Positions 7,795-9,070 of a stretch of DNA of 35,309 nucleotides are shown one piece after another. Position numbers and translations under genes: made by a program. The stretch comes from a virus. Taxonomy: Duplodnaviria > Heunggongvirae > Uroviricota > Caudoviricetes. Each line of letters begins with the position of its first letter. Position 1 is the first letter of the stretch. Under the pieces are notes generated by a model, which saw nothing but the letters and a program-made list of their open reading frames with translations, was not told the origin of the DNA and did not search any database. The DNA lies in the IMG/VR virus record IMGVR_UViG_2526164613_000023; one strand, given 5' to 3'.

Positions 7795-8754
7795 ATGAAA
7801 ATTTGTATCGACGACGGCTCCACCAACATCAAGCTGGCATGGACTGAGAACGGCGAACGCCGCAACGCCATCAGCCCGAACAGCTTCAAGTCGGAATGGT
7901 CTGCACCGTTCGGTGGCACGCAGCCCGCGAACTACATGCTTGATGGCGTGCGCTATGGTTTTGATCCGGTCAGCGATCGCTTTGTCCAGACGACCGACAC
8001 GCAATACCAGTACAGCGATGTGAATGTAATCGCCATTCACCACGCGCTGGTCAAATCAGGCATCACGCCACAGGAGGTGGATGTGGTTGTCACCCTGCCA
8101 CTGAGCGAGTATTTCGACACAAACGCACAGCCGGATATGACCAACATCAACCGCAAAAAAGCGAACGTCATGCGCCCGGTGGAGTACCAGAACGGTGAGG
8201 CATTCACTATCCGTAACGTGCGGGTTATGCCTGAATCCATTCCGGCAGGCTTTAAGGCACTGGCTGACATGAGTCCGTTTGAATCCCTGCTGATTGTTGA
8301 TTTGGGCGGAACCACGCTGGATGTGGCAAAGGTTCAGGGGCAACTGGCAGGCATCAGCCAGGTATTTTGCGATCCACACGTAGGCGTTTCACTGATGACC
8401 GATGCCGTACTGTCGGTGATGGCCACTAACGGTATGCGTACCAGTCACCACATCGCCAATACCATTATCGAACATCGCCATGATGAAGCCTGGCTGCGCC
8501 AGCACATCCACAATGTCGCGCATTACGACAGCCTGATGGCGGTTATTCGTGAAAAGGAAGAAACACTGAAACAACGCGTGATTCGCGCGCTGGCGGGGTT
8601 TTCGGGGTACGGTCGGGTGATGGTTGTCGGTGGAGGGGCGGAGATTGTGGCTCCGGCGGTACATGACGCTTACGGCCTCAACGCAAACATTCACACAACA
8701 CCGGAGCCACAGTTTGCCCTGGTTAATGGACTCCATGATATGGACAGGGAGTGA
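7795..8754 (+). CDS. parM: Actin-like plasmid segregation ATPase, ParM/StbA family
   Basis: 319-aa ORF; N-terminus MKICIDDGSTNIKLAW…ISPNSFKSEW… and later …YQYSDVNVIAIHHALVKSG… closely track R1 ParM as recalled; AAGGA RBS. Confidence 0.85.
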   Translation: MKICIDDGSTNIKLAWTENGERRNAISPNSFKSEWSAPFGGTQPANYMLDGVRYGFDPVSDRFVQTTDTQYQYSDVNVIAIHHALVKSGITPQEVDVVVTLPLSEYFDTNAQPDMTNINRKKANVMRPVEYQNGEAFTIRNVRVMPESIPAGFKALADMSPFESLLIVDLGGTTLDVAKVQGQLAGISQVFCDPHVGVSLMTDAVLSVMATNGMRTSHHIANTIIEHRHDEAWLRQHIHNVAHYDSLMAVIREKEETLKQRVIRALAGFSGYGRVMVVGGGAEIVAPAVHDAYGLNANIHTTPEPQFALVNGLHDMDRE

Positions 8755-8758
8755 ACCA

Positions 8759-9070
8759 ATGACAACATCAACCAGGCGGATAAGTTTCTATCTGAAGCCT
8801 GCAGCCGTCAAGAACGAAAGCGAAGCATGCGCCTGGCTGGACAGCCTTACACCAGAAGCCCGCAAAAGCGGCCAGCGTGTGGCTTTTCTGGCTGGGCTGG
8901 CACTTCTGAAAATGAATCCAGCAGAGGCTTACCGACTGGCTGCATGGGCTGACGATGAGGCGTTATCCGTGACACAAACCAGGACTGAACGCCCCGTGTC
9001 ACAGTCAGTACCAACCGCACAGATAACCAATCAGATGGCCGGAAATATCAGGGCGTTATTCCCCGAATAA
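8759..9070 (+). CDS. parR: ParR-like centromere-binding adaptor
   Basis: 103-aa ORF starting 5 nt after the parM stop with a GGAG RBS; RRISFYLKP…AFLAGLALLKMNP…IRALFPE parallels R1 ParR (RTIAFKLNP…AALTAGLALYRQDP…LRSLFPKE) as recalled. Confidence 0.7.
   Translation: MTTSTRRISFYLKPAAVKNESEACAWLDSLTPEARKSGQRVAFLAGLALLKMNPAEAYRLAAWADDEALSVTQTRTERPVSQSVPTAQITNQMAGNIRALFPE

Follow-up and report, generated by a model that had tools for sequence, protein, structure and literature searches.

The ParMRC system of plasmid R1 (StbA/StbB of plasmids NR1/R100) is arranged in the order cis site, parM, parR, and the C-terminus of R1 ParR is the part of this adaptor that binds ParM. The cis site, parC, is described in the abstract of PMC2241845 as two clusters of five 11-bp iterons. 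Two further actin-type systems are relevant here: SrpMRC of the SXT/R391 integrative and conjugative elements (ICEs) acts on the transient excised replicating form of the element and cuts its loss, SrpM being only distantly related to R1 ParM and SrpR having no recognisable ParR domain (Carraro et al. 2015, PMC4489591), and in AlpAC of the Corynebacterium glutamicum prophage CGP3, the adaptor binds its own upstream sites and tethers the circular DNA of the phage to the filaments (Donovan et al. 2015, PMC4446434). The present analysis concerns a parM-parR cassette encoded in the IMG/VR virus record IMGVR_UViG_2526164613_000023 (Caudoviricetes), a stretch of 35,309 nucleotides hereafter called the window, which is an integrated P2-like prophage with btuC adjoining the integration site. 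The cassette consists of two intact open reading frames (ORFs) located 3' of the phage replication gene A after a gap of 76 bp and preceded by a candidate centromere. The results obtained here comprise homology, intactness, purifying selection, conserved cis boxes, linkage to gene A and chromosomal state. The favoured reading, held with evenly divided confidence, is that the cassette would be a complete functional type II ParMRC module of the R1/StbAB family acting on transient circular phage DNA.

The first ORF (7795..8754, + strand) encodes ParM, an intact actin-fold ATPase of 319 aa. It matches the Pfam families StbA_N (2.8e-82) and ParM C-terminal domain (2.1e-65) as well as PHROG 691 ('partition protein'), and the solved structure of R1 ParM (1mwk) aligns with it end to end (E 2.7e-91, residues 2-314). 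Its identity with an R1-type IncF ParM is 47% over the full length, and the nucleotide-binding and catalytic motifs DDGSTN, MPESIPAG, DLGGTTLD and GGGAE are identical or conservatively replaced with respect to R1 ParM. The second ORF (8759..9070, + strand), which starts at the ATG at 8759 and not at 8624, encodes ParR, a predicted centromere-binding adaptor of 103 aa. Its product matches Pfam Plasmid_stab_B (1.7e-24) and PHROG 2515; a profile built on it aligns with R1-type ParR over residues 5-67 (hhalign 96.8%, 32% identity) and, with two plasmid ParRs added, matches the solved pB171 ParR (2jd3, E 6.9e-9), the overall identity with R1-type ParR being only ~26-28%. Residues 1-67 of the protein make up its N-terminal DNA-binding domain and residues 68-90 a linker of variable sequence, and the C-terminus is a conserved tail, QMAGNIRALFPE. 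The motif (K/Q)N(A/I)xxLFP is common to the ParRs of the phages and of a plasmid (L005), a motif of this kind ends those of the distant prophages and of one IncF plasmid, and the R1-type tail is looser (KNAMKLIN). At the level of sequence, ParM and ParR can both be assigned to the type II family, ParR being placed in the ribbon-helix-helix adaptor family at this level only. An earlier note on this DNA, made by a model from the letters alone, had named the two genes parM and parR at 7795-9070, and the matches to Pfam, PHROG, R1 ParM and pB171 ParR bear out both names and coordinates. Its wording that they match R1 closely was too strong, the identities being those of members of the same family and not of close relatives. 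Neither a mismatch to the family profiles nor a frameshift, which that note took as grounds for giving up the assignment, was seen.

Both ORFs are intact in all 12 of the 12 loci compared. Pairwise Nei-Gojobori estimates gave a median dN/dS of 0.059 for parM, 0.156 for gene A and 0.255 for the whole of parR, so that purifying selection is stronger on parM than on the essential gene A. Within parR, the ratio is ~0.19 for the N-terminal domain (1-67), ~1.0 for the linker (68-90) and ~0.25 for the C-terminal tail (91-103). Constraint is thus found in the DNA-binding domain and the tail and is absent from the linker, which is the pattern predicted for a working adaptor.

The alleles of both genes vary among records. 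The window ParM differs from the common allele mainly at a C-terminal patch (residues 289-304 and 314-318). This patch (8659-8751, residues 289-318) carries 14 lineage-specific residues, is absent from nine other E. coli-type alleles and looks, from the sequence comparison, like mosaic recombination rather than decay; the allele is rare, since of 1304 matching records no more than 29 are at least 95% identical to it. In E. coli, ParR circulates as at least three allele types (103, 104 and 101 aa; window 8759-9070, L003 4465-4779, P0034 and P0037), with a nearly invariant N-terminal domain and a common tail ending in NIRALFPE. About half of the matching records that were sampled lose their nucleotide homology to the window some 55 nt inside parR (query position 1019), which suggests allele swapping through recombination. 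Furthermore, the ParM encoded on a 226-kb contig labelled Vagococcus sp. (NZ_JBQPOM010000071.1) shares 93% identity with that of the E. coli phages, which probably reflects assembly contamination or mislabelling.

A candidate centromere/operator, parC, was delineated upstream of parM as an unstranded, A-tract-rich feature (7652..7766). It is composed of two 42-nt direct repeats (7652-7693 and 7725-7766) with a start-to-start distance of 73 bp, and the last 67 nt of gene A run into the first of them. The repeats that the earlier note had placed at 7652-7770 are therefore real, and each contains the palindrome GGGATT-N4-AATCCC. This palindrome is found twice in the window, for 0.13 occurrences expected, and none of 100 shuffled sequences reached two. 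The resulting boxes, of the form GGG-N10-CCC, are box 1, GGGATTCACAAATCCC (7670..7685), 125 nt upstream of the parM ATG, and box 2, GGGATTTAAAAATCCC (7743..7758), 52 nt upstream of it. Exactly two such boxes are present within 250 nt upstream of parM in the window, in phage P88, in the Hafnia loci L011 and L019 and in the Plesiomonas locus L018. In these five loci of three divergent lineages they lie at -124 to -131 and at -51 to -59 from the ATG, with a spacing of 72-73 bp, for a background rate of GGG-N10-CCC of 0.11 per kb. In the O157 copy, box 1 also falls within -124 to -131 and box 2 has one mismatch (CCT). Box 2 is followed by an AT-rich element, ATTAATTAATCAA, and a ribosome-binding site, AAGGA (7766..7794, + strand); indeed, ATTAATCAA and ATAAGGA recur 5' of parM in L011, L018 and L019. 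This segment may hold the -10 region of a par promoter together with its leader; a consensus promoter scan gave no site at 7766..7794.

The boxes follow parM and parR rather than gene A. Among phage records, the parC candidate region occurs only in those bearing parMR. It is kept in the Hafnia loci though gene A is only 69.6% identical; in L011 the stop codon of gene A seems, from coordinates mapped onto the alignment, to lie inside box 1, yet conservation persists further downstream in the region. In L019, where gene A and parM have an extra ORF between them, the distance of the boxes is fixed to parM and not to gene A. The boxes were therefore not retained as a part of gene A or of its origin. 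They were also considered as hairpins or terminators, box 1 having been flagged as a minus-strand terminator-like site. In L018 and L019, however, the outer GGG/CCC alone survive and the inner stem shows no compensating changes, so that a candidate protein-binding site is preferred to a hairpin; a minus-strand terminator 1.3 kb inside an antisense parMR would moreover be implausible. Taken together, the two boxes appear to form a conserved cis element tied to parMR, which is a plausible parC and not proof of one.

Of 5426 complete E. coli genomes, 1303 (about a quarter) carry the cassette, with up to three copies per chromosome; some 140 E. coli genomes are polylysogenic. The junction from gene A through the repeats to parM is contiguous in 1299 of the 1370 E. 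coli genomes that bear the gene A 3' end of the window, and is 95-99% identical, i.e. better conserved than parM. Homology among P88-like phages stops exactly at the parR stop codon (query position 1471, window 9070), where a variable hotspot starts. A scan of genome contigs with ParM yielded only three close loci, and distant relatives were reached by protein searches: ParMs of 54-63% identity were each traced to a P2-like prophage, the hosts being Plesiomonas, Hafnia, Serratia and Enterobacter. In these distant prophages gpA is followed, directly or after one or two small genes, by parM and parR, and then by variable cargo and the portal and terminase genes. In one Hafnia lineage, the identity is 69.6% for gene A (at the nucleotide level) versus 87% for parM. 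The slot 3' of parR holds a HicAB toxin-antitoxin system in Serratia (L021, 7450-8084) and a KAP NTPase in Enterobacter (L022, 7411-8757), which fits a variable hotspot starting right after parR. In the phage collection, only P88-like records among the Peduoviridae/P2-like phages carry the cassette, in agreement with the statement of the earlier note that such phages otherwise have no partition system; the only other close phage ParM is that of the P1-like phage D6 (46.5% identity). Plasmid ParMs in PLSDB are at most 51.5% identical to that of the window, and values of 90-95% are reached only by prophage copies within records labelled as plasmids; the window ParM type forms a clade separate from plasmid ParMs. 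Capture of a plasmid stability module as cargo, one of the earlier suggestions, is not supported as a recent event in view of this distance, of the linkage to one gene A lineage and of the shared slot in distant prophages. By these sequence comparisons, the cassette is to be regarded as an old, strongly selected core module of the replication region of its lineage, and not as recent cargo.

The usual setting of a type II system, a low-copy extrachromosomal replicon, is not that of this cassette. Indeed, 1449 of the 1451 cassette copies in complete E. coli genomes are chromosomal, and the window copy lies beside btuC. Among the 442 E. coli genomes that carry the single integrase type covered, none showed an intact attP junction, the matches being broken at the att core. 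In PLSDB, the close nucleotide matches comprise large records into which the prophage is integrated, a linear fragment of a Shigella prophage and one phage circle. This circle (NZ_CP148288.1, 34,461 bp, circular, P88-like) is the only whole-phage circle among 72,556 plasmids and is opened at the att core, as expected for an excised prophage; the attP query spans its start and is informative only for other records. A Plesiomonas shigelloides contig (L018, WEKF01000002.1, 32,167 bp) is about one phage length and ends, by estimate, ~150 bp past the integrase gene. This contig and NZ_CP148288.1 look like assemblies broken or circularised at att owing to excised circles in culture. An extrachromosomal prophage in lysogens, which would define a phage-plasmid, is thus represented by a single circular record of 34.5 kb. 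The chromosomal copies and the absence of attP junctions weigh against stable maintenance as a plasmid and favour an ordinary integrated lifestyle in which circles are occasionally excised. No plasmid Rep gene was present among the annotated genes of the near-identical prophage, no systematic search for one having been made. A stable plasmid lifestyle, as proposed by the earlier note under the name of episomal or phage-plasmid maintenance, is not supported. What characterises SrpMRC-like systems, namely an integrase together with an actin-type par locus conserved across the lineage, was found here.

For the working of such a module, we infer binding of ParR to the boxes, ParM filaments, the timing of expression and a fitness benefit as follows. 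ParR dimers would bind the two GGG-N10-CCC boxes (parC) upstream of parM, which probably regulates the operon too, and the C-terminal tail of ParR would capture the ends of ATP-ParM filaments, whose growth between two parC-bearing circles would drive the circles apart. Since the phage is integrated in essentially all genomes, extrachromosomal circles would be the sole substrates, present either between infection and integration or once the prophage has been excised and gpA rolling-circle replication has begun. The likeliest benefit would be that a few circular copies reach both daughter cells, with less abortive lysogeny or loss, as for SrpMRC.

Several points weigh against this reading. Partition needs replicated copies within a dividing cell, and P2-type phages are not known to replicate outside lytic growth, so the useful phase may be small. 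The endolysin of the window's prophage is interrupted, so that the cassette may no longer serve the phage cycle here. The cis element has two boxes (four half-sites) versus the ten iterons of R1 parC, and the formation of a ParR scaffold is thus hypothetical. The Serratia and Enterobacter relatives, whose ParRs are longer, differ in repeat architecture, with inverted arms of 14-20 nt placed 26-28 nt apart. The AlphaFold model of the ParR monomer is poor (pLDDT 58.5), and a Foldseek search with it matched no solved fold. Finally, O157:H7 transcriptome and proteome papers gave nothing usable on the expression of parM and parR. In a more tentative formulation, ParMRC may be a working cytoskeletal part of the replication module with an unusually small two-box centromere, acting on the monomeric gpA circles either to allow a brief heritable episomal phase ahead of integration or to arrange lytic replication spatially.

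The role could lie within the lytic cycle, ParMRC positioning or separating the monomeric circles made by gpA and aiding replication or packaging, with inheritance by daughter cells being irrelevant. The genes parM and parR come right after the replication gene, where the early replication operon ends, with no terminator-like site between them on the + strand (none in a consensus terminator scan), the cassette is nearly always tied to one gene A type, and the very strong selection on parM fits a role in every infection cycle. AlpC and AlpA are induced early, bind phage DNA and are needed for efficient replication (PMC4446434), and by analogy with this precedent the positioning of replicating phage DNA, also put forward in the earlier note, is possible. 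However, ParM and ParR are members of the R1/StbAB family of plasmids (the Pfam actin-like-protein model ALP_N stays just under its cut-off, with 26.2 bits for 26.3), other P2-like phages, which lack such a system in the phage collection, replicate well, and degraded prophages, namely the O157:H7 remnant and the endolysin mutant, keep parMR intact; a purely lytic role is a serious alternative, considered rather unlikely. Another proposal, also made by Rousset et al. (2022), according to whom about a fourth of P2-like phages carry the cassette, is a true phage-plasmid, i.e. a prophage that is a low-copy plasmid in some hosts and is partitioned by ParMRC. The whole P88-like phage recorded as a circular 'plasmid' in NZ_CP148288.1 and the use of a ParM of the same family by the P1-like phage D6 are in line with it. 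It is nevertheless very unlikely in view of the chromosomal location of essentially all copies, the lack of intact attP junctions, the rarity of circles (one, opened at att, among all PLSDB records), the nature of the Shigella 'plasmid' match, which is a linear prophage fragment, and the presence of an integrase with no plasmid-type replication gene among the annotated genes.

A third view is that the cassette is a moron, ParMR being expressed from the integrated prophage and serving, for example, incompatibility with or exclusion of related phages, or having an effect on the chromosomal locus. The position of the cassette at the edge of the gpA-gpQ hotspot, which is home to accessory and defence genes expressed in lysogens, its intactness in defective prophages, a possible promoter element of its own conserved 5' of parM, and the three ParR allele types in one species with a nearly invariant N-terminal domain would all suit such a role. 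It is considered quite unlikely, since the cassette is invariant within the lineage, unlike hotspot cargo, since up to three copies share one chromosome without obvious conflict, and since no PADLOC defence model was matched by ParM or ParR; a reading of parMR as a defence system was rejected on the latter ground. Lastly, the cassette could be a plasmid stability module that was captured and is now decaying, a relic that no longer has a function, as some truncated parM products in the protein collection and a frameshifted parM in one phage record might indicate. Such a non-functional relic is contradicted by the selection data described above, to which the intact ORFs, the pattern of constraint over the ParR domains, the conserved boxes and the retention across genera at 54-63% identity are added, and is barely credible. 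The reading favoured here therefore remains that of a ParMRC module acting on transient circular phage DNA.

Over its first 29 kb, the window shares 99.997% identity with the chromosome of E. coli O55:H7 DEC5B, in which the element adjoins btuC, and by nucleotide identity the prophage groups with phage P88 and other Xuanwuvirus (Peduoviridae). A tyrosine integrase (1121..2263, - strand; Pfam Int_N and Phage_integrase) and the product of gene A (4896..7718, + strand), a rolling-circle replication endonuclease of 940 aa (Pfam Phage_GPA, 4.9e-130; PHROG 91, 'nicking at origin of replication'), are encoded upstream of the cassette. When 6300-7900 was used as a query, P2-like phages of Klebsiella, Salmonella and Yersinia were matched, at 68-78% identity, by a segment of ~350 nt inside gene A only (6634-6983), which may be an internal replication origin such as P2 gene A is known to contain. 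One P2 cos sequence, used as a query, gave no match. Downstream of parR, the first terminator-like site on the + strand, a hairpin with a T run detected by the consensus scan only (9282..9301), is probably the end of the transcript. It is followed by a hotspot cargo gene coding for a DUF3800 protein (9302..10108, - strand; Pfam DUF3800, PHROG 3732), which matches the PADLOC phage-defence candidate PDC-M04A (2.6e-35) and is common, among phage records, only to Chuche. The far edge of the gpA-to-gpQ interval is the portal gene Q (10718..11764, - strand), identified by Pfam Phage_portal and by the annotation of the near-identical DEC5B chromosome, and, according to the latter, the terminase and the P2 capsid and tail genes are also encoded in the prophage.

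Other genes of the prophage and of its relatives were also inspected. The endolysin gene (17548-17940, + strand), annotated in DEC5B as an M15 family metallopeptidase, has an in-frame stop at codon 41; the window's copy of the prophage is probably lysis-defective, though parM and parR are intact. The prophage of O157:H7 TW14359 (L003, locus 600-8019) is heavily degraded: an IS3 remnant lies 3' of parR, the tape-measure gene is frameshifted and the portal-to-tail genes are gone, and gene A, parM and parR are intact. An ORF of 300 aa (24084-24986, + strand), located in the window between the tail-fibre gene and the tail-fibre assembly gene, is annotated in DEC5B as macro domain-containing; its match to DarG is very weak (E 0.0044), and its position is unusual for a macro domain.

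The cassette genes and the plasmid hypothesis were already known. Indeed, RefSeq annotates a ParM and a partitioning/stability protein in E. coli genomes among the matches listed, and Rousset et al. (2022) raised the plasmid idea. The cassette is not discussed in the P88 genome paper, in a 2026 survey of P2-like diversity or in a 2026 hotspot study, and no functional study of the P88-like parMR cassette was found in the literature. The present analysis adds evidence against a plasmid lifestyle, the status of the cassette as an old and strongly selected core module, and a two-box cis element of conserved geometry. It raises the question of why a machine for plasmid segregation should be retained by an integrating phage, and this under purifying selection stronger than that on the phage's replication gene; furthermore, it narrows the candidate centromere to two 16-bp boxes, and the comparative data predict which parts of ParR matter. 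P88 and phiSM are at hand as inducible or spontaneously active phages. If the favoured reading is true, what was found for SrpMRC of ICEs and for AlpAC of CGP3 would hold as well for a prophage family that is very common in E. coli, and a type II centromere of minimal size would be defined. If the more tentative formulation is true, the segregation of DNA by actin-type systems would belong to the ordinary biology of temperate phages in the main bacterial model organism and would not be a plasmid speciality. Given the ICE and CGP3 precedents, either of the likely answers would be of little surprise to a specialist.

In summary, the locus shares with R1 ParMRC the order cis site (here a candidate), parM, parR, a full-length homologous ParM with the same ATPase motifs, a homologous N-terminal domain of ParR and a similar tail motif, and it shares with an R1-type locus (L004) A-tract-rich repeats 5' of parM. 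It differs from R1 in its replicon, which is an integrated P2-like prophage and not a low-copy plasmid, in the size of ParR (103 versus 116 aa, with another linker) and in its cis site, with two palindromic boxes 73 bp apart versus two clusters of iterons. Like SrpMRC, it is an actin-type partition locus on a normally chromosomal element; unlike it, SrpMRC lies in one operon with int under SetCD control, and the ICE replicates from oriT by a relaxase and not by gpA. AlpAC belongs to a different actin-like family and a Gram-positive host, and its demonstrated role is efficient replication of phage DNA after induction. Phage D6 (P1-like, 91 kb) is a tailed phage whose StbA-type ParM is of the same family; as a prophage D6 is itself a plasmid, so that partition plays its classical part there. 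The same cassette, at 90-95% nucleotide identity, is encoded in P88, phiSM, Chuche and other Xuanwuvirus and in CP-933T of O157:H7, where its genes are annotated as 'plasmid segregation protein ParM' and 'partition protein', and the window is distinguished from these phages by its rare ParM allele with a mosaic patch and by its own hotspot cargo, found elsewhere only in Chuche.

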